A DNA stretch of 34,862 bases, taken from contig CALXWF010000009.1 in the NCBI GenBank assembly GCA_944392285.1, forward strand, positions 1 to 34,862, given 5' to 3'. The position numbers and the translations under genes are program-made. The stretch comes from an uncultured Alphaproteobacteria bacterium. Its GTDB lineage: Bacteria > Pseudomonadota > Alphaproteobacteria > RF32 > CAG-239. Positions 3,180 to 34,862 of this stretch are shown here, in pieces (the first letter of the stretch is position 1; each line of letters opens with the position of its first letter). The notes under the pieces are model-generated. The model worked only from the letters and a program-made list of their open reading frames with translations. It did no database searches and had not been told where the DNA came from.

Positions 3180-3806
3180 TTAATTTACTGTCCTGCGCAA
3201 GCTCTCAATTCTCGGGAGCACGGAATTTTCAATGATAAAGGCTATGGCCTTTTCTACCATTTTGTCCGTGTGGCTCAGGGCTTTTACAACTTCATCCAAA
3301 TTACTGCCTTTGTCAAGTTTTTTCCCTAAGCTATTGTAAACGCCAGATAATTCGCTTAAAGAATCTGTCATACGGGCAATGTAGGCCGGCAAATTTAAGT
3401 CTTGTTTGCCACCCCAAAAACCTTCAAGAAAACCATATTCAACTTCTACCAAGCGAATGTCGCATTGAAGTTTGAGACTTTCAACATCTTTAGAAAATTT
3501 GTGTGACGGCAGGGTTATTTTGTTTTCAGCCACCAAAGAAAACATTTCATCCCACAAACCCATAAAAAACTTAAAAAACAAATCTGCCTCTTCTTTGGTT
3601 TCAAGCCTGGGGGTCTTGCCCTCCGGCCACAAAGAAGATATGACATCTGCCGGACGAAGCTCCAGATTAGGACTGCAGACGGCGCCGGCAAAACGCATCT
3701 TAATTACCGACAAAGGAGTCGGGCAGTTATAATGCTCTAAGAGTTTTAAAAATTTATCATCTCCGATATAATTGTTTTTTTCGCTTTGCATTTTTTTCTT
3801 CTTCAT
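3180..3806 (-). CDS. Hypothetical protein, possibly UPF0149/YecA-like
   Basis: This 208-aa ORF fills the gap between neighbouring genes on the same strand. The family assignment rests only on remembered similarity of the central segment (CSPNLELRPADVISSLWPEG...EEADLFFKFFMGLWDEM) to UPF0149 proteins. Confidence 0.55.
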   Translation of the reverse strand: MKKKKMQSEKNNYIGDDKFLKLLEHYNCPTPLSVIKMRFAGAVCSPNLELRPADVISSLWPEGKTPRLETKEEADLFFKFFMGLWDEMFSLVAENKITLPSHKFSKDVESLKLQCDIRLVEVEYGFLEGFWGGKQDLNLPAYIARMTDSLSELSGVYNSLGKKLDKGSNLDEVVKALSHTDKMVEKAIAFIIENSVLPRIESLRRTVN

Positions 3807-3836
3807 ATATAACGTTTAATAAGTTTCTTAAATGTA

Positions 3837-4238
3837 ATGGAGTTTTTTAAATTGTCCAGACCAAAAAGATTGTTTGTTTTGCTGCTGATAGCTTATCTTA
3901 GCGGTTGCGCTTGGGCTAAGCCTTATGTCGACCGGCGGCGCGAGGCCGGCATCAGCGACCCGGACAAACTCTATATCGGCCTATCAAAACCCGATAAACC
4001 GGCCATTTGCTACAACAAATGGGCCAGCGACTATGCCGAAGTAAAAAAATTGGCCGATGAGGAATGTGTGAAACAAAAAACCGGAAGCCATGCCGAACCC
4101 GTGGAACAAAAAATTATGAGCTGCAAGCTCTTTACCCCCAACCATTTTATTTTTAAGTGTGTCGGAACCCCGCCCTCGGAACCCGCAAACACTGAAGATT
4201 TTAATTATGAGGAAAATACTTATGAATTTATCAATTGA
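3837..4238 (+). CDS. Small Cys-containing lipoprotein, function unknown
   Basis: This 133-aa ORF has a signal peptide ending in the lipobox LSGC (LLLIAYLSGCAW). Its 3' end overlaps the argS start by 17 nt. Confidence 0.6.
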   Translation: MEFFKLSRPKRLFVLLLIAYLSGCAWAKPYVDRRREAGISDPDKLYIGLSKPDKPAICYNKWASDYAEVKKLADEECVKQKTGSHAEPVEQKIMSCKLFTPNHFIFKCVGTPPSEPANTEDFNYEENTYEFIN

Positions 4239-5970
4239 AAAAATTATTAATCAAAAACTGGCCGCTTGTTTTGACAAACTCGGGTTAGACAACAGTTTTG
4301 CCGTCGTTAAAGTTTCGGATCGTCCGGATTTGAGCGATTTTCAATGCAACGGCGCCTTGGCTCTGGCAAAAAAAGAAAAGAAAAACCCGCGTGAAATTGC
4401 CGCACAAATCGCCACTGAACTTGAAAAAGACCAAGATTTTGCCAAGATTTCAATTGACGGACCGGGGTTTATTAACCTCTCGCTTAAAGACGAAGCCATT
4501 GCCAAAATTCTTGACCAGATTGCCGCAGATAAACGTTTTGGCGTGGCAAAAGTCAGTGAACCTAAAAAAGTCGTTATGGATTTCGGCGGGCCGAATGTGG
4601 CTAAGGCCATGCATGTCGGTCACTTGCGCGCAGCCGTTATCGGCGAATCGCTCCAAAGAATCGAACGTTTCTTCGGTAATGAGGTGGTTTCTGACGTGCA
4701 TTTGGGCGATTGGGGAACGCCGATGGGCATGATTATTGCCGAAATCATTAAACAAGACGGTAATCTTGATAAAGCCCTTAACTATAATATTGATGAAATT
4801 ACCGAATTTTATAAGGCTGCCAACCTGCGTTGCAAAGAAGACGAAGCCGCTAAAGAAGATGCCAGACAAATTACGGCTCAGTTGCAAGACGGCAACCCGG
4901 AATATCGCCGCGTCTGGCAACATCTGCGTGAAGCCTCGGTAAGCGCCATTAAGAAAAATTATGACGCCTTGGATATTCATTTTGACTTGTGGCTCGGTGA
5001 AAGTGATGCGCATAAGGCCAGCGGCGAAGTGGTTAAACTGGCTGAAGATAAAGGTTTGTCCGAGCTTGATGACGGGGCAAGAATCTTGCGCTTAGAAGAA
5101 AGCAACAAGCCCAAACCTCCGGTTATCCTCATTAAGAGCGACGGGGCTTTCGGATATCAGATTACCGATATTGCAACCATTAAAGACCGTGTGGAAACAC
5201 TTAAAGCCGAAGAGATTATCTACGTTGTCGATAAACGCCAATCTTTGCACTTTGAACAAGTTTTTGAGGCGGTTGACAAACTTGGAATCGCCAAAGGCGT
5301 TAAGATGGTTCATATCGGTTTCGGAACGGTAAACGGCCAAGACGGCAAACCTTTCAAAACCCGTGACGGCGGCGTTATGACTTTGGAAAATCTGATTGAG
5401 ATGTCTAAGGAAAAAGTCAGCGAATCTATGCCTTCTGCTCAAGAAGCTCCGGAATATTCTCAAGACTATATTGATAACTTGACCCGCCAGATTGCCGTGG
5501 CTGCCATTAAGTTCCAAGACTTGAAAAATTCTATTGCCTCGGGTTATGTATTTGATTTGGAAGATTTTGCAAAATTTGAAGGCAAAACCGGCCCTTATAT
5601 TCAATATGCCATTGCCAGAATTAACTCTATTATTCGCAAAGCCAAAGAAAATAACGTGGCTTTCGGCAAAATCATTATCAGCAATGCGGAAGAAAGAGTG
5701 TTGGCTCTGAAACTCTTGCAATTAAATAATACTTTGCATCGGGCGTTGAACGAATATGAGCCGAGCATTATCTCTGATTATGCCTATACTCTGGCACAAA
5801 CATTCAGCAGCTTTTACAATGCCTCGCCGATTATCAGCGCCGAAACGCCACAGTTGGCCGCTTCTCGTCTGCAAATGGCAAAATTGGTGCGCGATGTTTT
5901 GACCTTGCTTCTTTACTTGCTCGGTATTGAAGCACCGGAAGTGATGTTAAAACGCGCCGAAAACGAATAA
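4222..5970 (+). CDS. argS: Arginine--tRNA ligase
   Basis: It shows class I aaRS architecture with the HIGH-type motif (AMHVGHLR), an ArgRS N-terminal domain and a C-terminal anticodon-binding region. I chose the start at ATG 4222 (MNLSIEKI...) because the upstream part of the 4159 ORF overlaps the lipoprotein CDS. Confidence 0.92.
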   Translation: MNLSIEKIINQKLAACFDKLGLDNSFAVVKVSDRPDLSDFQCNGALALAKKEKKNPREIAAQIATELEKDQDFAKISIDGPGFINLSLKDEAIAKILDQIAADKRFGVAKVSEPKKVVMDFGGPNVAKAMHVGHLRAAVIGESLQRIERFFGNEVVSDVHLGDWGTPMGMIIAEIIKQDGNLDKALNYNIDEITEFYKAANLRCKEDEAAKEDARQITAQLQDGNPEYRRVWQHLREASVSAIKKNYDALDIHFDLWLGESDAHKASGEVVKLAEDKGLSELDDGARILRLEESNKPKPPVILIKSDGAFGYQITDIATIKDRVETLKAEEIIYVVDKRQSLHFEQVFEAVDKLGIAKGVKMVHIGFGTVNGQDGKPFKTRDGGVMTLENLIEMSKEKVSESMPSAQEAPEYSQDYIDNLTRQIAVAAIKFQDLKNSIASGYVFDLEDFAKFEGKTGPYIQYAIARINSIIRKAKENNVAFGKIIISNAEERVLALKLLQLNNTLHRALNEYEPSIISDYAYTLAQTFSSFYNASPIISAETPQLAASRLQMAKLVRDVLTLLLYLLGIEAPEVMLKRAENE

Positions 5971-13924: not shown

Positions 13925-15154
13925 TTAAGATATTTTTGCCTTGATAAAGGGCATTGGATCTATGGAGTGTCCTTTATATAACACCTCATAATGCAGGTGC
14001 GGCCCGGTAGAACGCCCGGTACTGCCGACCTCGCCTAAAACATCATCAATCTCAACATAATCGCCTTTTTTTACATATATTTTGTGCATATGCGCATATT
14101 TGGTCTGGAAACCATTACCATGATCTACGACAACCAGATTTCCGTAACCGCCGGCATATTCGGCACGCGTTACCTTGCCGCGGGCCTGAACCTTAATCTT
14201 GTTTCCGGTACGGCTGGCTAGGTCAATTCCTTTGTGGCGGGCTGCTTTGCCGTTAAACGGATCTGAACGGCTGCCATAATGTGAGGTTACCCAATAACTC
14301 CATACCGGTTTGCCTAAAGGAACATATTCTGCAACTTCTTTATAATATTCCCACTTATCTACATCTTCAAAAATCTTGGAGATTTTATCATTTAATTTTT
14401 CATCTTTGAGGCGTTGTTTGGGAGCCGGAATGTATGGACCGCCTGAATTGGCGCCTTTTTTGCTGTTTGCCAAGGCATTAAAATATAAACCGTTTCTCTT
14501 TAAGGGGACATTAATGCTGTTAAAGGCATTTTTAATTTTGCCGACTTCGCGCGCCGCTATTTTCTCAACCTTTTCCAAAACATCTAACTCGGCAGCTTTA
14601 ATGTCTTTGATAATATTTTCCATTTCTTTGAGGCGTTCTTTGAGCTCATCACGCTCGGAGGCGGCAATGTCTCTTTGCAAAAGAGCCTCGTTTAAGGTAA
14701 TCTTTTCAGATAATGCATCTGATGAAAGCCATTCTTTTTCTTCCGTAATTTGCTTGATGCGATCTTCAACAATGGAGGCCTGCTTTTTATAATTTTCAAT
14801 TTCAGCTTTGGCATTCTTTTTTTCTAAAGAGGCCATCATTTCATTGATGTTTTTGTTTAAGGTAACAAAATCCGTCATCAGTTGGACATAGGCATCGCGC
14901 GTTTCAATAATCTCTTTATCTTTATATGAAATGATAACGCCGGAACGATTGTAAATATAATATGAGTAAAAGCTCCACGCACCAAACAAGACCAAAAGCG
15001 TTAAAACTATGGTCTGGAGGCGCGACGAGATGGTGAAAACTTTGGCCCGTCCTTGGCTTCTGAATATTATTTCCTTTGGCGAAAAAAACGTTTTCTTTTC
15101 GGCATAGTCGCTTGTTGGAAAACTATCTTCCGGCCCCGGAGTAAAAAAATTCAT
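13925..15154 (-). CDS. Bitopic M23 (LytM-domain) metalloendopeptidase with coiled-coil linker, LmdC-like
   Basis: This 409-aa ORF has a short cytoplasmic tail, one TM helix (IVLTLLVLFGAWSFYSYYIY) and a long coiled coil. The C-terminal M23 domain keeps the HxxxD (HKGIDLA) and HxH (GPHLHYEV) zinc ligands. Confidence 0.85.
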   Translation of the reverse strand: MNFFTPGPEDSFPTSDYAEKKTFFSPKEIIFRSQGRAKVFTISSRLQTIVLTLLVLFGAWSFYSYYIYNRSGVIISYKDKEIIETRDAYVQLMTDFVTLNKNINEMMASLEKKNAKAEIENYKKQASIVEDRIKQITEEKEWLSSDALSEKITLNEALLQRDIAASERDELKERLKEMENIIKDIKAAELDVLEKVEKIAAREVGKIKNAFNSINVPLKRNGLYFNALANSKKGANSGGPYIPAPKQRLKDEKLNDKISKIFEDVDKWEYYKEVAEYVPLGKPVWSYWVTSHYGSRSDPFNGKAARHKGIDLASRTGNKIKVQARGKVTRAEYAGGYGNLVVVDHGNGFQTKYAHMHKIYVKKGDYVEIDDVLGEVGSTGRSTGPHLHYEVLYKGHSIDPMPFIKAKIS

Positions 15155-15332
15155 CCAATTCCTATCTAAAAATTACACTCGATAATCTCTTATCATGGTA
15201 TAGGTATAGCAAAAAATTTTTAAAAATACAGCTTTTTTTGCAAACTTATCCAACCCCTCTAAATAATTCCTTGTTTTCTTTTGATTTTTGCGTCTTAATT
15301 TGGGGTAATTTAATGAGTTTTCGGAGGTCTTT

Positions 15333-15797
15333 ATGAAAGTTAAAACAAGAATTGCTGAAATTTTGGCCACTTGGTTTTATAGCGGTCGGGCACCTTTTGC
15401 TCCTGGAACTTTCGGTTCTTTGGCCAGTTTGCCTTTTGCTTATGCGCTTCAATATTATGGCGGCATAAGCGCTCTTTGTGTCTTTATATTGGTTATTTTT
15501 GTTATCGGCGTTTGGGCCAGCGATTATTATGCCAAAGCCGTTAATATTCAAGACCCCGGTTTTATTGTTATTGATGAAACGGCAGGACAAAGTATTGCCC
15601 TTATTTTTGCCGGAACAAATTTGTGGCTCTACGGACTTGGCTTCTTGCTCTTTAGATTATTTGACATCACCAAACCTTGGCCGGTTTCTTGGGCTGACAG
15701 CAAAATAAAAGGCGGGCTCGGCATTATGCTTGATGATGTGTTGGCCGGAATTATGGCTGCCGTTGTGTCGTTTGGCGTTATACAGATTTTGGGATAA
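15333..15797 (+). CDS. pgpA: Phosphatidylglycerophosphatase A
   Basis: This 154-aa polytopic membrane protein has PgpA motifs (GRAPFAPGTFGSL, VIDETAGQ, RLFDITKPWP, DDVLAG). A GGAGG ribosome-binding site lies upstream. Confidence 0.85.
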   Translation: MKVKTRIAEILATWFYSGRAPFAPGTFGSLASLPFAYALQYYGGISALCVFILVIFVIGVWASDYYAKAVNIQDPGFIVIDETAGQSIALIFAGTNLWLYGLGFLLFRLFDITKPWPVSWADSKIKGGLGIMLDDVLAGIMAAVVSFGVIQILG

Positions 15798-15801
15798 GGC
15801 T

Positions 15802-16116
15802 TTATTCTTCGTCTAAAATAACAAACTCATCATCTGCGGCGTAATTTAAGACAACACGCGCACGCTCGTCTAACATATCTAAGTCAAGACTCGTATTGGA
15901 AAGTAAGCGCACTTTTTTTTCAAGGCGGATTTTTTCATTATGATAGGTCTGCGCAATTTCTTTGGCCTTAGCAATTTCGTTTTTCAGGTAAAAATATTGC
16001 ATCAACCCTCTGTCACCGCTGATTCCGTGGAAGGCAAAATAGATAGACAGTATCGCACAAAAAAATAAATAACCAGAACTTTTCAGGCGATTTTGCAAAT
16101 CCATAAATAACCCCAT
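15802..16116 (-). CDS. ftsB: Septum formation initiator (FtsB/DivIC family)
   Basis: This 104-aa ORF has one N-terminal TM helix followed by a coiled coil (YFYLKNEIAKAKEIAQTYHNEKIRLEKKVRLL) and the C-terminal DERAR motif region (LDMLDERARVVLNY). Confidence 0.75.
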   Translation of the reverse strand: MGLFMDLQNRLKSSGYLFFCAILSIYFAFHGISGDRGLMQYFYLKNEIAKAKEIAQTYHNEKIRLEKKVRLLSNTSLDLDMLDERARVVLNYAADDEFVILDEE

Positions 16117-16234
16117 ATGTCTTTCCCGATTAGAAAATTAGACTCGCTTTGCCGTCTTTGCGGCTTGGGAAATTGGAACATATTTAAGTTAAGAATTCGT
16201 TACAAATACCCACGCAACGATAAATTTATCAGCA

Positions 16235-16648
16235 CTATTCCCATATACAATCATTTCCTTTCCACTTCCAACCGGTTATCGTACCGTTTTTTATGTAAAA
16301 AGAGGTTTGGCAATAATTTTCAACCTCATAACCGAAAGTTTGAGTGAAAGGCGAAAAATCATAGTCATTTACAAAAGGAGAATAAATAACATCTTCTGAA
16401 GGTTCAAAACCTTGATTATAGACATAAAATTCCGAAGGGACATAAACATCTTCTGCTTTGGTATAAGTAATGACTTTTTCGCCATCTTCAAGATATTTTA
16501 CGCCGTTCGGTGCACCCCAGCTTTGTTCTAATGCCGCTTCGTTTTTTCCTACCCAACTTTGCAGCATTTTATCATATTTTGCCGGTGTTGCGCAGGCAGC
16601 AAGCATGGATACCAGCAACAAACTTAAATTTATTTTTTGCTCCATCAT
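16235..16648 (-). CDS. Lipoprotein, function unknown
   Basis: From ATG 16648 (MMEQKINLSLLLVSMLAAC) it has a signal peptide with the lipobox LAAC. A GGAG ribosome-binding site lies upstream. The extra N-terminal codons in the ORF track are not needed. Confidence 0.6.
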   Translation of the reverse strand: MMEQKINLSLLLVSMLAACATPAKYDKMLQSWVGKNEAALEQSWGAPNGVKYLEDGEKVITYTKAEDVYVPSEFYVYNQGFEPSEDVIYSPFVNDYDFSPFTQTFGYEVENYCQTSFYIKNGTITGWKWKGNDCIWE

Positions 16649-16826
16649 TTTATCTCCTTTTGCTTTTCCTTTGTATGTAATCCTTCCTCCGTTTTTTTCA
16701 ACCAACATATAAACCTTAGGTTTAGTCTTAAAATATAAAATATATGTATAATTGATAAAATTGTTGCTTTTTAAATTTTTAATGTTAGATTTTCATCATA
16801 TATCAACTTTTAGGATTTATCCGATA

Positions 16827-17765
16827 ATGCATAAACCCCTCATTTCACTTCTTACACCTTGTTATAACGGCGAGTCGTATTTACGCCCGCATCTGGAGGC
16901 CTTGTTAAAACAGACTGCAGAGAATGTGGAATATATCTTTGTTAATGACGGATCAACCGATAAAAGTGAACAAGTGTTGTTTGAATATCGTGAAAAACTG
17001 GAAGCTAAAGGATGGAAAGTTGTATATTTGAAAAAGCCTAACGGCGGTGCCGCAGATGCTCTGAACCACGGCCTTAAGGTCTTTAGCGGAGACTATTTGA
17101 CCTGGGTTGACTCTGATGATGTTTTGCACCCGAATTTTTTGACAGAGATGTCCGAATTTTTGGAGGAAAACCAACAATTCGGTTTTTGTTATGCCCAAAC
17201 ACAATATGTTAAAGTTGAAGATCCTCAACATCCTTATTTTGTGCAAAAAAGAGTTATAACGGATGGGGAGCGTGACAACTTCTTTGAAGACTTGATTCTG
17301 GCAAAAAATCTTCCGGCTTTGGCTTTTTGTATGGTGCGAAGCCGTGACTTTTTGCGCGTAAACCCTACGCGCAGTATTTATGTTTCTCCGGTCGGGCAAA
17401 ATGCTCAAATGTTGCTCCCTATGGCTAAGAATTTCCGTTGCGGCTATATTCCAAAAGTTCTTTCAACCTATATGGTGCGACAAGGTTCCGCTTCTCATCA
17501 AATTAACCCTTTATATGATGCCATGTTAGAAGATGTTTTGCTCCACGTTATGCAAAATCTTGAGCTTAAGCCTTGGGAAGAAATTTATTGTAAACAACTT
17601 TTGGATAAAAGATTTCATCAAAATGAGGTTTCAAAAGACCAAAATTTTTCATTAAAACTTTTCGGTTTTATTCCTCTGCTTAAAGGGAAATGCCAAAAAT
17701 CTAAAACCAAGATTTATTTATTTGGCTTTATTCCGTTTCTTAGCTTAAAGAGTGTGCGCAAATAA
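16827..17765 (+). CDS. Family 2 glycosyltransferase
   Basis: From ATG 16827 (MHKPLISLLTPCYNGESYL) it shows the GT2 GT-A fold motifs (VNDGSTD, DSDD). The C-terminus has a duplicated LFGFIP(L/F)L segment. I rejected the earlier ORF start because the conserved N-terminus begins at M26. Confidence 0.85.
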   Translation: MHKPLISLLTPCYNGESYLRPHLEALLKQTAENVEYIFVNDGSTDKSEQVLFEYREKLEAKGWKVVYLKKPNGGAADALNHGLKVFSGDYLTWVDSDDVLHPNFLTEMSEFLEENQQFGFCYAQTQYVKVEDPQHPYFVQKRVITDGERDNFFEDLILAKNLPALAFCMVRSRDFLRVNPTRSIYVSPVGQNAQMLLPMAKNFRCGYIPKVLSTYMVRQGSASHQINPLYDAMLEDVLLHVMQNLELKPWEEIYCKQLLDKRFHQNEVSKDQNFSLKLFGFIPLLKGKCQKSKTKIYLFGFIPFLSLKSVRK

Positions 17766-18305
17766 TTTCTTTTTCTGTTTGGCAAACCATTTATCAGACT
17801 TTTCTTGACTGTTTACCTGCCATAAATAATTAAAACGCTTGGCAAAAGTCTCAGATATTTGGCTGTCTTCTACAAAAAATATGCAATTTTCACTATTCTT
17901 GTCTCCGGCCGGATTGGTCCAATTATATGAGCCGCTTAGGGTCGACTGACTGTCAAACACGGCAAATTTGTTATGTTCTATCTTGTGTTTGCTATGAACG
18001 CGTATGTTAATGCCATAGTTATATAGCTCTCTTACCTTAGAGTTTTTATTTGAAGCTTGCAGACGGTCAGTTAAAATTCGAATTTTGACGCCTCTGTCCT
18101 GCGCTTTCTTTAAGGCTTGGACGATTTTTTCATCATTTATGGCATAAACGGCGGCATCAATGCTGACTTTAGCTTTGTCTATAAAGCTTATCAAATTTTG
18201 TTCACACAAAGGCGACGGCGAAAAATAGACACGAATCTCTGCAGCTTTGGTGTAAGCTGAAAAAAAGCATAAATATATTACTATTAAAAGAAAGCGCTTA
18301 AGCAT
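17745..18305 (-). CDS. Secreted single-HKD phospholipase D / Nuc-like endonuclease family protein
   Basis: This 186-aa ORF has a signal peptide (LLIVIYLCFFSAYTKA-AE) and one HKD motif (HNKFAVFDSQSTLSGSYNWT). Size and architecture match the Nuc/PLD homodimer class. Confidence 0.85.
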   Translation of the reverse strand: MLKRFLLIVIYLCFFSAYTKAAEIRVYFSPSPLCEQNLISFIDKAKVSIDAAVYAINDEKIVQALKKAQDRGVKIRILTDRLQASNKNSKVRELYNYGINIRVHSKHKIEHNKFAVFDSQSTLSGSYNWTNPAGDKNSENCIFFVEDSQISETFAKRFNYLWQVNSQEKSDKWFAKQKKKLFAHTL

Positions 18306-18381
18306 AACATCTCTTTGGTTGTTTTTAATAGATATATAACAACCATTAAGATATATTCAAGCTTTACCTTTGAGATTTTTC

Positions 18382-18444
18382 TCGGGTGTTCAAGTCCCCC
18401 TCTGATACCATAACACCACAGCTCCCTTTCGGGGGTTGTGGTGT
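18382..18444. repeat. Copy A of a ~63-bp module (T-arm-like GGGTGTTCAAGTCCCCC, CTGATACCA, then a 14-bp hairpin with TTTC/GAAA loop)
   Basis: It aligns by eye to 18588-18650 with a few substitutions and a 1-nt indel. The hairpin spans 18413-18444. Confidence 0.7.
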
Positions 18445-18474
18445 GGAATTTTCCTCAAAGCCTTAGTGGCTTTG

Positions 18475-18489
18475 ATGGTGCCGCTTGGG
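18475..18489. repeat. 15-bp perfect duplicate of the tRNA-Thr 3' end (ATGGTGCCGCTTGGG)
   Basis: It is identical to 18651-18665, which spans the CCA end and acceptor/T-stem of tRNA-Thr. Weaker similarity continues for about 8 more nt. Confidence 0.8.
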
Positions 18490-18575
18490 GACTACTCGGC
18501 GCTCCGCTTGAGTTGCCTCTGCGGCGCTGCCCTCTCGGGCACCGGCGTTCTCCCGCCCGCCTGCGCCTGGTAGTC
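18490..18575. other. Very GC-rich ~86-bp core with nested helices (candidate structured RNA or foreign DNA remnant)
   Basis: Closing helices are GACTAC 18490-18495 / GTAGTC 18570-18575 and GGCGC 18498-18502 / GCGCC 18563-18567. An internal hairpin TGCCC-TCTC-GGGCA lies at 18528-18541 and has a GAGA loop on the minus strand. The composition contrasts sharply with the AT-rich surroundings. Confidence 0.3.
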
Positions 18576-18651: not shown

Positions 18652-18727
<76 letters not shown>

Positions 18728-30181: not shown

Positions 30182-31846
30182 TTAGATGCGCTTCTTGCTT
30201 TTGAGATACTCTTTTGAGGCTCGCGCCTTTAGTCGTTTTATTATTGGGGTGTCGCCAAGTGGTAAGGCACCGGTTTTTGGTACCGGCATTCGTAGGTTCG
30301 AATCCTGCCACCCCAGCCAAAGTTGACAAGAGCCTATTTTAGCGAGTGCTAAAATAGGCTTTCTTATTGAAATTTCTATATTTTTACCGTCTAATAAAAT
30401 TTCCGAACAAAGTAATTTTAAAATCTGCTGTTTTTTGTCGTTGTTCAGAAAATTCCATATCTGATCTGACATCAAAAGCAATCCTGCTAAGTATTTTAGC
30501 GTTATTAATCCTTGATTAGTCAGATGACTATAGTCTGTTAATCGTTCTTCCAGTTTTTTCTTTTCATGTCTATATTCGGTTATTTTTTTAATATATAAAT
30601 CTTGTGTAATACTAGCTTCTGTATACAGGTCAATCAAACGACTCTCCTTCTCCGTAAAACCTGCAATTTGTCGTTCCAATGCCTTCTTGGCTTCTATTTC
30701 CATTTTATGATCTTTATACATTTCTTCATTTAAGCATTCCACCATTTTTTCGACAACGCCTTTAGGTATGTTTTTAAGCGTTTTTAACGCCTCTTTCACT
30801 TTTTCAACCCCTTTTTCTTCTCTTGTTCGATAACCGCTGCATTGCGGGCAAAAAAGGTATTTATAAACGATTTTTTCATCTCCTTTCTTTTTGGCTTTAT
30901 GTATATTGATATCCGTCGAAATGATTCCGCCACATTTTTTGCAACGAACCAATCCCTTAAAAACATAATCATGCTTCTGAACCTTATGATTAGCCTTTCC
31001 TTCCAAAATATCTTGGCACTTCTCAAACGTCTCCTTATCTATCAATTTTGGGTAACAATGTGGATAATAATGCCCGCCGCTATACATTTCTCCCATATAA
31101 AAACGATTGCTCAATATGCCTCGTATGGTTTGCTTATGGATTTTATTACTGTTTTTCATTTTTAATCCGTAATCAGCGGCTTTTCTCGTTATCTGCTCCA
31201 AATTATATGTGCCGATTGAAAAATCTTTAAATAAGCGAGTAATTATAAAATGTTTATCTGCATCTAAAATAATTTCGCTATTTCCATTTTCATTTCTTAC
31301 ATTCTTATAGCCGACAGGTGCATGATGTGCCCATTTTCCCTCTTTACGCATTTTTTCAAAACTTCTTATTACATTATCACTCATTGTATCAGTTTGCGAC
31401 TGAGCTACAGTAATCCGAAAGTTCCACATCAACTTATCATGAGCTTTAGCATTCTTGGCTATCACCGATTGTTCCGTATTAAAATGAATGACAATTTTTT
31501 CTTTTTCAATCAGCTCATTCAAAACATTATATTCTTTGAAACTCCTTTGCAAACGGTCAACCTTATCACAAACCAAAGCAACCGGATTTTTATATTTTTT
31601 GATAAAATTTATCATATTATAAAATTCTTCCCGTTCTCCTCTGGTCGAACTTTCCACTACGGTAAATTGCTTAACCACTGTTAACCCTCGTTGCACGCAA
31701 TAATTTTTTAACCTGTCTTCCTGAGCATCAAGTGAATAACCTTCTTTTTGCTCCCGACTTGACACTCTTATCCATAAAACAGCGTGTTTTATATTTTCAT
31801 TTTTTACAACTTTTACGACTTTTCTGCCCATGTTTTTACCTTTCAT
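30182..31846 (-). CDS. Large serine recombinase (resolvase + recombinase + zinc-ribbon/coiled-coil domains)
   Basis: It has the catalytic motif WIRVSSREQ, DKVDRLQRS, the recombinase-domain motifs APVGYKN and LSNRFYMGEMY, and the zinc ribbon CKKCGG...CPQCSG followed by a coiled coil. The family-typical C-terminus (DGKNIEISIRK) ends near 30360. The last ~57 codons are antisense to the terminator and tRNA-Gln. The start is ATG 31846 or 31831. Confidence 0.85.
   Translation of the reverse strand: MKGKNMGRKVVKVVKNENIKHAVLWIRVSSREQKEGYSLDAQEDRLKNYCVQRGLTVVKQFTVVESSTRGEREEFYNMINFIKKYKNPVALVCDKVDRLQRSFKEYNVLNELIEKEKIVIHFNTEQSVIAKNAKAHDKLMWNFRITVAQSQTDTMSDNVIRSFEKMRKEGKWAHHAPVGYKNVRNENGNSEIILDADKHFIITRLFKDFSIGTYNLEQITRKAADYGLKMKNSNKIHKQTIRGILSNRFYMGEMYSGGHYYPHCYPKLIDKETFEKCQDILEGKANHKVQKHDYVFKGLVRCKKCGGIISTDINIHKAKKKGDEKIVYKYLFCPQCSGYRTREEKGVEKVKEALKTLKNIPKGVVEKMVECLNEEMYKDHKMEIEAKKALERQIAGFTEKESRLIDLYTEASITQDLYIKKITEYRHEKKKLEERLTDYSHLTNQGLITLKYLAGLLLMSDQIWNFLNNDKKQQILKLLCSEILLDGKNIEISIRKPILALAKIGSCQLWLGWQDSNLRMPVPKTGALPLGDTPIIKRLKARASKEYLKSKKRI
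30246..30320 (+). tRNA. tRNA-Gln (anticodon UUG), CCA encoded
   Basis: It folds as a 75-nt cloverleaf: TGGGGTG TC GCC AAGTGGTAA GGC A CCGGT TTTTGGT ACCGG CATTC GTAGG TTCGAAT CCTGC CACCCCA G CCA. U1:A72 and G73 are as in bacterial tRNA-Gln. Confidence 0.93.
30332..30370 (+). terminator. Intrinsic terminator after tRNA-Gln (lies inside the recombinase ORF on the other strand)
   Basis: A perfect 13-bp stem AGCCTATTTTAGC / GCTAAAATAGGCT (30332-30344 / 30349-30361) with a GAGT loop is followed by TTCTTATT. Confidence 0.6.
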
Positions 31847-31893
31847 TTTTTTATTAAAATTTATTTTTAAGTTTTATTATTCCTTAGGTCAAT

Positions 31894-31920
31894 GAAGGCC
31901 GGATTTATTATCCAGCCTTC
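31894..31920 (-). promoter_or_regulatory. Intercistronic hairpin between the two recombinase genes
   Basis: On the minus strand, GAAGGCUGGAU-AAUAA-AUCCGGCCUUC forms 11 bp including one G:U pair. No U-tract follows. Confidence 0.3.
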
Positions 31921-31936
31921 TTTGAATTGATTTTCT

Positions 31937-32788
31937 CTATGCTGCCAACTTCATATTTTTTCCTTCCTCAGCATTATGGTGAAGTTCTCGCGCCAATTTA
32001 TCTTGCACCGCCATGAAAACTTCTTCTTTGATTAATCTCTCATAATTATGGCGATAAAGCTTTCCTCCACTACGCATCAGCCCGCAATAGAAAGGGTTTT
32101 GCAATAAATGAAGCAGTGTTCTTCGACTGATTAATGCACCTGATGTTGTATACAGCGGCATAGACTTTGCAAGCTCAAGCAACATTTTGATATCAACTTT
32201 CGTTTGCAAATAGATGTCAAATAGACACTTAACCTTATCAGCCTGTTCATCAAACTCAATCCAAGGAATCCAACTTGGGCGACAATTCTTGTACCCTATC
32301 GGGGCTTTGCCTGGGTATAAGCCTTTTTCTCTCATGTCTTGCAAAGCCTTTCTATCTTTTTCTGATTTTTCTGCAGAAAAATGCTCGGCACTGGCTATCA
32401 ACTGCCTGTATTTAAACATTGTATCAGCATCGGAAAGCCTCTTGATAACCATAGCCTCTTTAACAAAGTGTATTTCAACCTTCTCTTCCTTTACCAATAC
32501 ATCTAATATCGATATATGGTTAAAATTTCTGGCAAGCCTATCCGCAGAAGCGACAACCAAAGCAATTGGCTCGCTTGAGACTTTTTCTATTATCTCTAAT
32601 ATCTTATCAAATTTGGGGCGTCTTTGAGCAAAGGCTCTTTCGATTGCCATTTGACTTTCTATAATTTTTAAATCATTATTCCGGCAATACTCTTTACAGA
32701 TAACTTCTTGCTCAATCAAAGATGCTCCAGTGTTTTGCTTTACCGAAGAAATACGGCACATAATGATTGCGGATCTAGCGGCAGTCAT
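31937..32788 (-). CDS. Short serine recombinase (resolvase + recombinase domains only, no zinc ribbon/coiled coil)
   Basis: This 283-aa ORF has the catalytic motif MCRISSVKQ, ADRLARN, and the recombinase-domain motifs APIGYKN and LQNPFYCGLM. A GGAG ribosome-binding site lies upstream, and the start overlaps the upstream gene by 14 nt. Confidence 0.8.
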   Translation of the reverse strand: MTAARSAIIMCRISSVKQNTGASLIEQEVICKEYCRNNDLKIIESQMAIERAFAQRRPKFDKILEIIEKVSSEPIALVVASADRLARNFNHISILDVLVKEEKVEIHFVKEAMVIKRLSDADTMFKYRQLIASAEHFSAEKSEKDRKALQDMREKGLYPGKAPIGYKNCRPSWIPWIEFDEQADKVKCLFDIYLQTKVDIKMLLELAKSMPLYTTSGALISRRTLLHLLQNPFYCGLMRSGGKLYRHNYERLIKEEVFMAVQDKLARELHHNAEEGKNMKLAA

Positions 32789-33917
32789 TTTTTTCTCCTT
32801 TTCTTAAAATTATTACATTATTTTCATCGATAGCGGCAGTAATTGCCTCTAAATCTGGCTGCAGCCAATTATTCCGTGGCTCAATTTGATTAATCATTCG
32901 AAAAAGATCATAAATGGCAGGAGAGAAAACATTTCCGGCATGTAGTTTTAACTCTCGTTTTCCCATTTTTTTCAGAATTGTAACCAAACCGACCAACTGA
33001 AGGGCTTTAAGAAATTTGTATTTGTTATCCAGCAGGCGTTTAAACAAATCTCCTGCATCTTCGTCACTTAATTGCAAGTATTTGACGGCGGATAAAATTT
33101 CGTTCCAATAAGTCAATGTAACAGCTCGGCAAATCTGGCTATTGAAAAGATTTTGGAAAGTTAACTCTGGCACGGGAAGTCCCGCTTTGCTTATTGCTTT
33201 ACGAATATTGTCTGAATTGCCAAGCTGAATTTCAATCCGCAGATACTGGCTGGAACCCAATAAAGCCAAATTAAGACTTTCAGCATTTTCTGGATTCACC
33301 GCACGTTTTTTATTGTACTGCGCTTTTTGAATGTCTTTAATTTTATCGTAAATAACAACATTTCGATGTTGAGATAAAAAGTGTAATGAATGTCCTTCAT
33401 TTCTGTACGAAACTTTGGTGCAATCAAGTCTGCGTGTGATATCGGCTTTGTTTAGATATTGCAAAATTACGTATGGAGCGATATTCACCGGAACATTTTT
33501 GCCATAATCGATTCTTACCACTTGAGCGGATCGCAGTGCTTGAGGTAAAACATCAATCCCCATTTCTCGTAACCTTGACGCCAAATTTTCGATAAGATTG
33601 TCAAAATCGGCATCGCCAATTTCTTCCAAATTATTTGGTGGAAAATTAAGGAGCTTTGGAGCTGAAAACTCAATTTTGAGTTTAACGCTAAACCCACCGT
33701 ATCGAACAACACTGCTTAATGAAACTTTGGGATAATAACCCCATCGCAAATCATCAAATCTGGCATTGTAATAACAAGTTACTGCTTCAGCTCCGTGCAT
33801 ATTCCACAGAATTTCGGGGCTTGGTTTGAAGCAAGAAAGTTTATTAATAACAATATCCGCATAATCCACCAATAAAACACAGGTATCACAGACATTTTTG
33901 CTTTTAATATCGAGCAT
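32775..33917 (-). CDS. Hypothetical protein with rolling-circle replication-initiator-like motifs (Rep_trans / phage gene II-CRI-like, tentative)
   Basis: This 380-aa ORF has an AGGAG ribosome-binding site. The ordered motifs VVRIDYGKN, RNVVIYDKIKD and YLRIEIQLGN resemble the R-x-D, YDK and R-x-E-x-x-L blocks I recall from Rep_trans/Phage_CRI initiators. No search was run. Confidence 0.5.
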   Translation of the reverse strand: MLDIKSKNVCDTCVLLVDYADIVINKLSCFKPSPEILWNMHGAEAVTCYYNARFDDLRWGYYPKVSLSSVVRYGGFSVKLKIEFSAPKLLNFPPNNLEEIGDADFDNLIENLASRLREMGIDVLPQALRSAQVVRIDYGKNVPVNIAPYVILQYLNKADITRRLDCTKVSYRNEGHSLHFLSQHRNVVIYDKIKDIQKAQYNKKRAVNPENAESLNLALLGSSQYLRIEIQLGNSDNIRKAISKAGLPVPELTFQNLFNSQICRAVTLTYWNEILSAVKYLQLSDEDAGDLFKRLLDNKYKFLKALQLVGLVTILKKMGKRELKLHAGNVFSPAIYDLFRMINQIEPRNNWLQPDLEAITAAIDENNVIILRKGEKNDCR

Positions 33918-33927
33918 TACGATTCTC

Positions 33928-34095
33928 CTAAATTTTAGTGATTAAAATTTTTAACTCTGGAGTATTCTGAACCGTTTCGGCCAGTATCTTGGCAATTAGA
34001 AGCAAAGAATCAGCAGCTTCCGAAATTTCTTTTTCAGAAAGATTCGGACAAGAAGATCGTATTTCTTCGTGATATGCTTCGCTGTTAATTGTCAT
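33928..34095 (-). CDS. Small acidic protein, first gene of the element operon (55 aa from ATG 34095; 74 aa if ATG 34152)
   Basis: MTINSEAYHEEIRSS... is preceded by AGGGAAGG. It ends 10 nt before the Rep-like gene. I recognise no similarity. Confidence 0.4.
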   Translation of the reverse strand: MTINSEAYHEEIRSSCPNLSEKEISEAADSLLLIAKILAETVQNTPELKILITKI

Positions 34096-34257
34096 TGTTC
34101 GGCCTTCCCTTTCGCCTAAAGTTATGTTACTGGACGAACAATGCACCTTCACAGCTTAGCAACGTTTGATGGAATGAAGAGAAAAGAATGAGAATAAAGT
34201 ATAGTGTGTTTCTATACTACTCGCTCAAATCTGTCATCACCGTAAACTTCCTCGCTT

Positions 34258-34292
34258 TTGTCCGCTGTGAAATTTGCTCTCACAGCGGACAA
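34258..34292. repeat. Perfect 13-bp inverted repeat with 9-nt loop (TTGTCCGCTGTGA-AATTTGCTC-TCACAGCGGACAA)
   Basis: It was read directly from the sequence. No T-tract lies on either side, so it is not a canonical terminator. Confidence 0.8.
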
Positions 34293-34316
34293 GACCTTGG
34301 TCTAAGCGTTTCAGTT

Positions 34317-34390
34317 TATTGCGGTAAAAATGACCAAAAAAAAATTCCTGGAACACCATTACCGCAATATTGTCCGGTGTTCTTCAGGAA
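34317..34390. repeat. Two interleaved inverted repeats
   Basis: TATTGCGGTAA (34317-34327) pairs with TTACCGCAATA (34359-34369), a perfect 11 bp. TTCCTGGAACACC (34345-34357) pairs with GGTGTTCTTCAGGAA (34376-34390), with a 2-nt indel. Confidence 0.7.
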
Positions 34391-34613
34391 CTTTACGAGT
34401 AGTAAGAACTTACAAAAAAGATACTCGGTTTCCGAATGCCTCTATAATATAATTGAGGCACCATCGATATGAACATGGGTATAATAAAAATTTTGCATTG
34501 TCAATATCACTTTTACAAAAAAATGATCAAAACAAAAAAAAATTTTTTAAAATTATCGTGCAAGTTGTTTAAATGATAAAACTTTTATTTTTTTGAAAAC
34601 AAACTCACTCAGG

Positions 34614-34862
34614 TTAAGCACATTTTATTTCTTCTTTTGACTGAAACTTGTCATTCAATTGTTGTAACACAAAATAAGCCATTTGCTCTATGACGGGAAT
34701 CGTAACGGAATTTCCGAATAACTTATATTGTTGAGTATCTGAAACTTCTTTCGGAAAAGAAAACATATCTGTTCCGTCCGATTGCTTAAAAGCATAATTT
34801 ATAAAGCCTTGCAATTTTCCCCATTCATTTGGAGTCATTACTCTAATGAATTTATCATTCAC
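34614..34862 (-). CDS. DNA (cytosine-5)-methyltransferase, C-terminal fragment (gene continues beyond the right edge)
   Basis: It has motif IX-like RVMTPNEWGKLQGF and motif X FGNSVTIPV. The reading frame is open to the window edge, so the M in the ORF track is an edge artefact. Confidence 0.85.
   Translation of the reverse strand: MNDKFIRVMTPNEWGKLQGFINYAFKQSDGTDMFSFPKEVSDTQQYKLFGNSVTIPVIEQMAYFVLQQLNDKFQSKEEIKCA

Follow-up and report, generated by a model that had tools for sequence, protein, structure and literature searches.

Textbooks and database practice tie integration into tRNA genes to tyrosine integrases, and the serine family had been taken not to target tRNA genes. Islands of the Islander type, mobilized by tyrosine integrases, insert at tRNA 3' ends, restore the gene that they enter by supplying tens of its bases, leave a displaced gene fragment at their far end, stack in tandem and carry adaptive or defence cargo. 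In Myxococcus phage Mx8 (intP), fusellovirus SSV1 (int) and mycobacteriophages such as BPs (integration-dependent immunity), all of which use tyrosine integrases, the element attachment site (attP) lies within one of the element's own genes; the mycobacteriophages likewise insert into a tRNA gene, and protein stability there is set by the exchanged C-terminus. Large serine integrases, such as those of phiC31, Bxb1, A118, TP901-1 and TnpX, display a common order of catalytic domain, helix E, Recombinase domain and four-Cys zinc ribbon with a coiled coil, act on very short cores shared by attP and the host site attB, and are encoded at the element edge by attP. A large survey of serine recombinases never mentions tRNA (PMC10083194), and a survey of streptococcal integrative mobilizable elements (IMEs), in which the integrase is paired with a relaxase of the rolling-circle Rep type, places serine integrases in protein-coding genes only, not in tRNAs (PMC5357655). 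Here we describe a locus at the end of a 34,862-nt stretch of DNA (hereafter the window) from an uncultured Alphaproteobacteria bacterium (contig CALXWF010000009.1), which we read as the left part (~4.5 kb; 4,543 nt visible) of a site-specific integrative element, inserted at the 3' end of a tRNA-Gln gene by a serine recombinase whose gene contains attP, with the tRNA restored and recent mobility. We assign this reading a probability of about 0.72; judged from sequence comparison, the identity of the element, its junction, the attP-in-gene layout and the clade-wide targeting of tRNAs are well supported. Members of this element family occur in uncultured gut Alphaproteobacteria, with remoter relatives in several other phyla.

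The integration target is a tRNA-Gln(UUG) gene on the plus strand (30245-30319; ARAGORN, and Rfam tRNA at 61.8 bits). Its bases 30245-30313 are host-derived, as in junction alignments the tRNA-Gln body varies among hosts of near-identical elements and thus belongs to the host side. The last six bases, CAGCCA (30314-30319; TGGCTG on the recombinase strand), which take in the final two bases of the acceptor stem, the discriminator G and CCA, constitute the junction core according to the junction alignments and the unoccupied site of L011 (L-numbers, e.g., L001, L005 and L011, denote related loci from other assemblies used for comparison). The left boundary had been placed at 30246 in a preliminary description of this DNA; it must be moved to 30314-30319, inside the 554-codon open reading frame (ORF) of the recombinase. 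In a three-way alignment, the window, L001 and L003 are collinear through ...TCTTGTCAA(C/G)TTTGGCTG and diverge abruptly after it. The left junction (attL) reads ...GTCAA(C/G)TTTGGCTG followed by GGGTGG, the latter in the tRNA, and the right junction (attR) of complete relatives, which are ~6.8-12 kb long, consists of a host-specific terminator hairpin, TGGCTG and then ACCAAGGTTTATGACC... An unoccupied attB is present in L011, where a tRNA-Gln (15925-15999) retains its native 3' flank, and this flank matches the host side of the L007 attR (82% over 94 nt); the empty tRNA-Gln site that the preliminary description had suggested seeking in related genomes was hence found. Finally, attP-type junctions (recombinase core, TGGCTG, tail) occur in L003, L084, L092 and L093, with other tail variants in L085, L010 and L090. 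TGGCTG is the sole sequence common to attL, attR, the unoccupied site and the attP-type junctions; by this comparison the crossover dinucleotide sits within the CAGCCA core. The tRNA-Gln is intact in the window and CAGCCA is present at both element ends in relatives, a pattern in which the six terminal tRNA bases are restored by the element. The element therefore resembles Islander-type islands in its insertion at a tRNA 3' end, gene restoration, displaced far-end fragment, tandem stacking and adaptive or defence cargo, and differs from them in its serine recombinase, with another mechanism, in a restored segment of 6 bp rather than tens of bases, and in that it probably substitutes for the terminator and not for much of the tRNA itself; it behaves as a tRNA-targeting genomic island, but its edge recombinase is not the tyrosine integrase usual in that class.

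Recent mobility is indicated by copies in other genomes. The element of the window and that of L005 are 99.6% identical over all 4,543 visible nt, in flanks that are unalignable and at a different tRNA-Gln locus; with L001 and L004 identity is 99.4% over 2,270 bases, against 75% in the adjoining host DNA. Near-identical elements within diverged or unalignable flanks therefore show, at the sequence level, recent transfer between species. Since relatives display the two kinds of junction, a site without the element and signs of recent transfer between genomes, the earlier proposal of an integrative element at tRNA-Gln holds.

Head-to-tail stacks at one site are frequent and were observed in L003, L010, L084, L085, L090, L092 and L093; in L092, for instance, a copy at 3222-4556 is followed by a full second element extending to 14323, and L093 contains two stacked recombinase 3' fragments. 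In stacked copies the older recombinase ORF reads into the tail of the newer copy, and some older copies are truncated. This arrangement suggests that attL may be reusable as an integration target. Other variants at the junction were also noted. A GTCAA motif (window 30324-30328) stands 4-5 nt before TGG/CCA in many loci, in subclades with different target tRNAs, and could be a P' half-site contact of the recombinase or a mere reflection of a conserved Gln codon. At L008:12461-12709 the recombinase is followed by a 12-nt tRNA 3'-end fragment, ~150 nt of other sequence and a complete tRNA-Gln, and this element has a similar sequence, resembling a tRNA or tmRNA 3' end, at both its ends. At L011:10971-15755 the recombinase ORF runs in frame to 1,594 aa, into a neighbour gene with N6-adenine methyltransferase motifs (NPPY) that resembles a type IIG restriction-modification enzyme by motif only; the locus might represent a secondary site of insertion or a separate island. 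A search for far ends in distant subclades through direct repeats of 9 nt or more gave mostly chance matches, as a 6-bp core would predict.

The enzyme encoded at the junction is a large serine recombinase, with a catalytic domain, a Recombinase domain, a zinc ribbon with inserted coiled coil, and short att sites. Its 554-aa ORF (30182-31846, minus strand, as given by the ORF list) matches Resolvase (PF00239, 1.4e-20) and Recombinase (PF07508, 1.1e-13) in Pfam, and reaches a sub-threshold 18.4 bits with Zn_ribbon_recom (cut-off 25.3). In an alignment of 27 homologues, R27, S29, D94, R98 and R101 are invariant, as are the zinc-ribbon cysteines C302, C305 and C336, with C333 nearly so. The structural model of a homologue in joined form (P0063; predicted local distance difference test score, pLDDT, of 75) displays the standard layout, with strands at 295-337 and helices at 338-433. 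The domain order is that of the large serine integrases, which also share the very short attP/attB core (6 bp here) and the position of the gene at the element edge by attP; unlike them, the clade of the window targets tRNA 3' CCA ends and its coding sequence holds a hairpin for the target tRNA.

The recombinase ORF reaches the junction without meeting a stop codon of its own and continues antisense across the whole tRNA-Gln gene, a point absent from the preliminary description. Codons 1-511 (30314-31846, minus strand) are element-encoded, as delimited by Pfam, a PHROG integrase match (5e-64) and homologue conservation, with the true start likely at the second Met (31831); the remainder (30182-30313, minus strand) is a host-encoded read-through tail (GWQDSNLRMPVPKTGALPLGDTP...), i.e., the translation of the antisense tRNA and host spacer to the first stop. 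A homology search retrieved hundreds of recombinases (75-99% identity, 531-632 aa) whose C-termini are identical through "...KPILALAKIGSCQ(V/L)WL" (...SCQ(V/L)WL) and then separate into discrete classes according to the flank, several being translations of different antisense tRNA-Gln genes and others unrelated to tRNA. In L001, L002, L004, L007, L008, L010 and L012, a conserved 37-codon tail, "TKVYDLRKKYEQELAEMYLIINGMDDDLRQMMTIEKG", is located 6.8-12 kb upstream of the gene for the recombinase, with which it agrees in orientation and frame. As this far-end segment completes the ORF when the ends are joined, attP is placed inside the recombinase gene by these sequences, and integration thereby replaces the native 37-residue tail with flank-encoded sequence, in the window with antisense tRNA. 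In the circular element, the junction ...CTTGTCAA(C/G)TTTGGCTG followed by ACCAAGGTTTATGACC... would be expected, with the ORF completed by the native tail, and a full-length tailed recombinase (543-aa form) might be made from this circle and perform integration. As in Mx8, SSV1 and BPs, integration rewrites the 3' end of an element gene, such that the free and integrated forms encode different proteins; unlike in those systems, the rewritten gene is a serine recombinase and its differing forms are known from sequence alone. We found no description of attP inside a serine recombinase gene, or of this clade, in open-access papers and bioRxiv; tRNA targeting and an attP-in-gene layout by serine integrases are thus undescribed as far as the open-access literature shows, an earlier description elsewhere being possible.

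The native tail is likely functional, as judged from a small, phylogenetically related sample of 12 copies (8 distinct sequences). In all 8, the recombinase frame alone is open and the other two frames are closed, variable sites are distributed as 7/6/18 over the three codon positions (binomial p = 0.004), and an identical 37-aa peptide is encoded by four different DNA sequences. The first 24 nt are almost invariant in DNA (3 variable sites, none at third positions), as expected for a P half-site of the recombinase, and the remaining 90 nt keep the frame and stop position, with variable sites at 5/5/18. In the P0063 model a long helix (491-529), followed by another (532-542), spans the crossover point with moderate confidence; the antisense-tRNA tail of the window (GWQDSNLRMPVPKTGALPLGDTP...), which is Pro/Gly-rich, would end the long helix. 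We hypothesize a tail switch, in which the C-terminal helix would belong to the enzyme solely in the circular or stacked state of the element, acting as a built-in sensor of the integration state. The alternative that survives best, although we consider it unlikely, is a read-through without function: the enzyme would be complete at approximately residue 497, after the closing beta-hairpin, the attP overlap would be a matter of compaction, and the far-end segment would be kept as a DNA-binding half-site, not as a translated tail. This would accommodate the arbitrary tails of very different lengths in integrated copies, up to the 1,594-aa fusion, the end of the folded domains ahead of the overlap, the moderate pLDDT of the modelled tail (52-69) and the near-invariance of the first 24 nt, as in a binding site. 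A serine-integrase half-site, however, needs only ~20-25 bp, and the last 90 nt retain their frame, stop and third-position bias, with one peptide kept across four DNA sequences and the other frames closed throughout, which argues for a translated tail.

The same end of the gene contains a hairpin that the element supplies downstream of the target tRNA. In the window it occupies 30329-30362 (plus strand; 15 pairs and a 4-nt loop, then UUUCUUAUUG; minimum free energy -20.8 kcal/mol, z = -5.0), beginning 9 nt past CCA and lying within recombinase codons ~496-507. An equally strong hairpin of unrelated sequence stands at the same place in L024, whose enzyme is 41% identical and whose target is tRNA-Pro. 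When 51 distinct sequences were folded individually and compared with shuffles, 41 had z < -2, and the mean free energy was -16.7 kcal/mol, vs. -6.0 in control windows of the same gene (Wilcoxon p = 6e-9). Their stability is greater on the tRNA-sense strand (p = 0.003), where G.U pairs are three times as frequent (1.67 vs. 0.55), each being a C.A mismatch on the recombinase mRNA. Native tRNA flanks, i.e., that of L011 and the attR host sides, also hold a hairpin, which is displaced by integration. The hairpin of the element is, by these sequence features, likely a replacement terminator donated to the target tRNA.

The targeting of tRNA 3' ends extends over the clade. Among 87 loci with a recombinase 3' end, selected by recombinase similarity (27-100% identity to the window enzyme), an antisense tRNA lies at most 7 nt from the projected codon 510 in 67, and 4 more run off the contig. 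For 52 of the 67 tRNA-abutting loci the offset is exactly -2 with codon TGG, the Trp codon being the CCA of the tRNA, just as codon W510 (TGG) of the window is the CCA of tRNA-Gln. Eleven tRNA identities are targeted (Gln, Pro, Asn, His, Trp, Ala, Leu, Glu, Arg, Val and Ser). The hosts, assigned from record titles and subject to possible binning errors in metagenome-assembled genomes, are mostly uncultured gut Alphaproteobacteria, and also Melainabacteria/Gastranaerophilales, Fusobacterium, Magnetococcales, Candidatus Tisiphia and others. Relatives reached independently via the Rep-like protein described below have the same arrangement at tRNA-Asn and tRNA-His. The attB half distal to the tRNA differs between hosts, and because of this variation the recombinase likely recognises mainly the tRNA half of attB, which could in turn explain tandem stacking at one tRNA, as attL would be left usable. 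A wider reading, which taken jointly we hold only tentatively and at slightly less than even odds, is that these enzymes form a phylum-spanning serine recombinase clade specialised on the tRNA 3' CCA end (at least 11 identities), with attP in its own frame, such that ~150 bp would pack a binding site, a replacement terminator and an integration-state-sensing C-terminal helix; the clade would travel with an unnamed Rep-like family (~1,150 clusters), joined in gut Alphaproteobacteria by a unique recombinase paralogue devoid of the zinc ribbon.

The genes listed for this element in the preliminary description are all present on the minus strand as described, and Pfam matches both recombinases, the C5 methyltransferase end and, marginally, Phage_CRI. 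The module of small ORF, Rep-like gene, small recombinase and large recombinase recurs in relatives. The gaps between genes, reported earlier as tiny or negative, are so for the 10-nt gap between the small ORF and the Rep-like gene and for the 14-nt overlap of the latter with the small recombinase; those of the two recombinases are separated by 90 nt (31847-31936, minus strand). The three coupled genes could plausibly form a single operon. In the inter-recombinase gap there is one weak promoter-like match (31892-31863); such matches are as numerous in shuffles as in the region, and this one is no evidence of function.

The Rep-like protein (380 aa; 32775-33917, minus strand) belongs to a family, putatively a distant relation of Phage_CRI/G2P, of ~1,154 clusters at E <= 1e-10, of ~360-410 aa and with no functional name in any source. 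Its match to Phage_CRI is marginal (22.6 bits, with 21.7 as the gathering score; E = 9.5e-5; positions 80-212 of the 232 in the profile), and 12 of 43 family members match this profile, with a best E-value of 5e-6. Y190, in a Y-D-K motif, is invariant together with E83, E99, D195 and E229, and these residues may constitute a catalytic and metal-binding set. The structural model (pLDDT 87) matches predicted viral structures, including one Inoviridae protein, with probability 1.0 and template modelling (TM) scores of 0.41-0.46. A Rep_trans/RepD-type fold was considered and found unsupported, with no Foldseek match in the PDB at E <= 1e-3. The protein had no NCBIfam, PHROG or PADLOC match; the family was not detected in 50,697 phage records (tblastn) or 72,556 plasmid records, and was found on 1 of 2.9 million viral contigs. 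Even at ~30% identity it adjoins these recombinases, the gene order being SpoVG-like, Rep-like, [HTH_17], [cargo], recombinase. The rolling-circle-type initiator proposed earlier thus retains slight backing in the marginal profile match and the predicted viral structures, and lacks it from solved structures, a nick site, or phage and plasmid records. The 380-aa protein might nick and replicate, or mobilise, the excised circle, although this is no more than a reasonable inference.

The TLC satellite of Vibrio cholerae, whose Cri protein gave Phage_CRI its name and which integrates via the host Xer system, raises the question of whether the element is a defective or satellite filamentous-phage-like prophage, in which the 380-aa protein would be a gpII/Cri-type initiator and single-stranded DNA would be packaged by a helper inovirus. 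The marginal Phage_CRI matches and the best structural matches, which are predicted viral proteins and include the Inoviridae one, would fit this explanation; we nonetheless consider it improbable, given that the complete relatives all lack genes for coat, morphogenesis (Zot/pI) or other virion proteins, that the cargo consists of defence genes, autotransporters and the like, and that the phage and viral collections yielded the near-complete absence stated above, together with no PHROG matches. Streptococcal IMEs and the TLC satellite are alike to the element described here in being small integrative elements with no transfer apparatus of their own and a Rep-like gene beside the recombination module. 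Unlike in the streptococcal IMEs, the 380-aa family is unnamed, has no Rep_trans structure match and is absent from plasmid and phage records. Regarding the features that define IMEs, the integration module is present, complete relatives contain no transfer-pore genes, and a relaxase role of the Rep-like protein is putative.

The small serine recombinase (283 aa; 31937-32788, minus strand) starts within the end of the Rep-like gene and matches Resolvase (6e-15) and Recombinase (1.5e-7) only in Pfam, without zinc ribbon or coiled coil, as had been noted for one partner of the pair. In PHROGs and PADLOC it gave nothing useful other than 'integrase'. It represents a stable family of ~16 clusters (283-288 aa) with an invariant catalytic R-x-S-S motif; the nearest proteins outside the family are recombinases of 492-496 aa, 30-37% identical. 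Three types, sharing 40-65% identity, are freely combined with different large-recombinase types, which argues against a tightly co-evolved Ccr-like pair. The small recombinase is missing from remoter relatives, and those at ~40% identity or less integrate at tRNAs without one; in 4 of 5 distant loci examined, a Xis-like HTH_17 protein takes its slot. Both the small recombinase of this clade and the HTH_17 protein that most of the examined distant relatives carry are candidate directionality factors, and, with low confidence, the former might aid excision or resolve multimers, as its position and domain content suggest.

The preliminary description had likened the two recombinases to the CcrA/CcrB logic of staphylococcal cassette chromosome (SCC) elements, with which the locus shares tandem serine recombinases, a small chromosomal cassette and arrays at one site. 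That it is itself an SCC-like cassette with an obligate CcrA/CcrB-type pair is very improbable: the recombinase genes are indeed tandem and paralogous, and CcrB is the best NCBIfam match of the small recombinase, but at 41 bits vs. a cut-off of 900, and the large protein matches no Ccr family; zinc ribbon and coiled coil, which CcrA and CcrB both possess, are missing from the small protein, the target is tRNA-Gln and not the 3' end of rlmH (orfX), and the small partner is both shuffled among large types and dispensable in relatives. Membership in the Ccr family is accordingly discarded.

Two traits of the small recombinases were observed in passing. Twelve of 13 copies end in -AA (...KLAA or ...VAA; window 31937-31945), that of L013 ending in ...SVA, and one large-recombinase tail variant (P0060) ends in ...QELAA. 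Ends of this kind resemble ssrA-type ClpXP degradation signals, and by this analogy hint at a possible control by proteolysis. In one of the three types, the Asp of the D-R-L-x-R motif is replaced by Asn or Ser, and this type may be catalytically impaired; the type of the window keeps the Asp (SADRLAR, residues ~80-86).

Several points weigh against the readings favoured here. No excised circle was seen, and every attP-type junction with resolvable context lies between stacked elements; a metagenome scan for the attP junction gave two hits, both tandem arrays, and L084 and L085 have no terminal overlap. The window ends inside the element, the far end of which is outside it. Many of the 87 loci come from related genomes, such that the counts given above are not independent events. 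The tail was judged from few and related copies, its helix is modelled with only moderate confidence, and integrated recombinases bear arbitrary tails, such that catalysis may not depend on the tail. The hairpin is weak or absent in 10 of the 51 sequences, the classical U-run is missing in many, a fixed-register helix over 35 diverse loci had 53% of cells paired with an equal value in the slid control, and RNAalifold gave no consensus hairpin. The Rep-like label derives from a Pfam score that is marginal and from TM-scores that are modest; it finds no counterpart among solved structures (chance-level hits only in the profile search, and none at E <= 1e-3 with Foldseek against the PDB), and no conserved nick site or origin, nor a hairpin or block common to the family, was found upstream of the module. 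The roles suggested for the small recombinase, likewise, come from position and domain content alone.

Base composition is a lesser guide. The greater AT-richness to the right of tRNA-Gln, reported earlier, is real (GC content of 0.33-0.38 in the element region vs. 0.38-0.47 to the left), but it is weak evidence of foreign origin because an ordinary host stretch at 14.5-18.5 kb, encoding a bactofilin, an M23 peptidase, a family 2 glycosyltransferase and a PLD-like protein, is equally AT-rich (0.35-0.39). This low-GC stretch (14500-18500) adjoins a tRNA-Thr (18652-18727) and displays no mobile-element signs.

The least probable alternative of all, a fixed immobile remnant vertically inherited at the locus, could draw on a deletion derivative found at one locus in three assemblies (L001, L002 and L004) and on the frequent breaking of contigs within the element, but all four module genes are intact in the window copy, the nearly identical copy of L005 occupies a different tRNA-Gln locus in unalignable flanks, and the same clade is found at tRNAs in several phyla. 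The deletion derivative itself (e.g., L001:5599-6249) has no Rep-like gene, lacks the first 66 residues of the small recombinase, and keeps a large recombinase 100% identical over the conserved 510 residues.

If serine integrases do form a coherent clade at the CCA end of many tRNAs, the gap left by the association of tRNA genes with tyrosine integrases would be filled, and island-finding tools would currently miss an element class. Serine integrases are the preferred tools for large-DNA insertion; a short, near-universal tRNA 3' end with seemingly one conserved half-site might offer landing sites in many unmodified bacteria. Moreover, a recombinase gene rewritten by its own reaction would be a simple and directly testable state switch. 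Lastly, these elements carry defence systems (prokaryotic Argonaute, pAgo; Dcm-Vsr; MzaDE-like; Fic) between little-known gut Alphaproteobacteria.

The remainder of the visible element comprises a small ORF, a spacer and the beginning of the cargo. The small ORF is listed with 74 aa (33928-34152, minus strand) and was detected by tblastn in L003 and L005-L020; as homologues in the more divergent loci align from residue 18-21 onwards, the form of 55 aa from the ATG at 34095 is probably the real one. It has no Pfam or PHROG match and no useful one in PADLOC, and SpoVG-like proteins take its position in distant relatives. The spacer, described earlier as ~460 bp and rich in inverted repeats, is of 461 bp (34153-34613) and does contain perfect inverted repeats of 13 and 11 bp (hairpins at 34258-34292 and 34317-34369), with no Rfam match; throughout the element, the tRNA was the sole match in Rfam. 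Promoter, leader and origin are candidate functions of this region. The idea that relatives have an origin or nick-site hairpin in common upstream of the module was considered and rejected, as the spacer is conserved only within subgroups. A block of ~37 nt, AGTTCTTACT(A/G)CTCGT(A/T)AAGTTCCTGAAGAACACCG (window 34380-34420, minus strand), recurs in L005, L013, L003 and L006, the last two being otherwise divergent in the spacer; it has no Rfam match and might act as a leader or operator, or encode a small RNA.

The methyltransferase at the window edge (34614-34862, minus strand; DNA_methylase, 9e-7; Pfam and NCBIfam) is the 3' end of a C5 cytosine methyltransferase and is 100% identical to the end of the full 380-aa Dcm of L005, where Dcm is followed by Vsr, AIPR/MzaE-like and DUF4420/MzaD-like genes. 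As read from this 99.6%-identical element, an exact look-up of the 380-aa Rep-like protein on public contigs having given nothing, the methyltransferase is cargo, and the cargo of the window copy is of the defence type (Dcm, Vsr, MzaD/MzaE-like). Other copies carry a class II pAgo with a nuclease partner, Fic, a Dam-like methylase or autotransporters. The pAgo (PADLOC pAgo_II, 1.9e-222) and its Aga_Helical-REase partner (3.5e-94) were located at L007:1078-4391 and L001:1574-4887, and these small elements therefore move pAgo defence between gut Alphaproteobacteria. A tyrosine-recombinase-like protein of 164-205 aa, consisting of the catalytic domain only, also recurs in the cargo of relatives (L007:4388-5005, L001:4884-5483, L003:7278-7877 and L085:4317-4811, all on the minus strand); located neither at the junction nor in the window, it would be a third recombinase.

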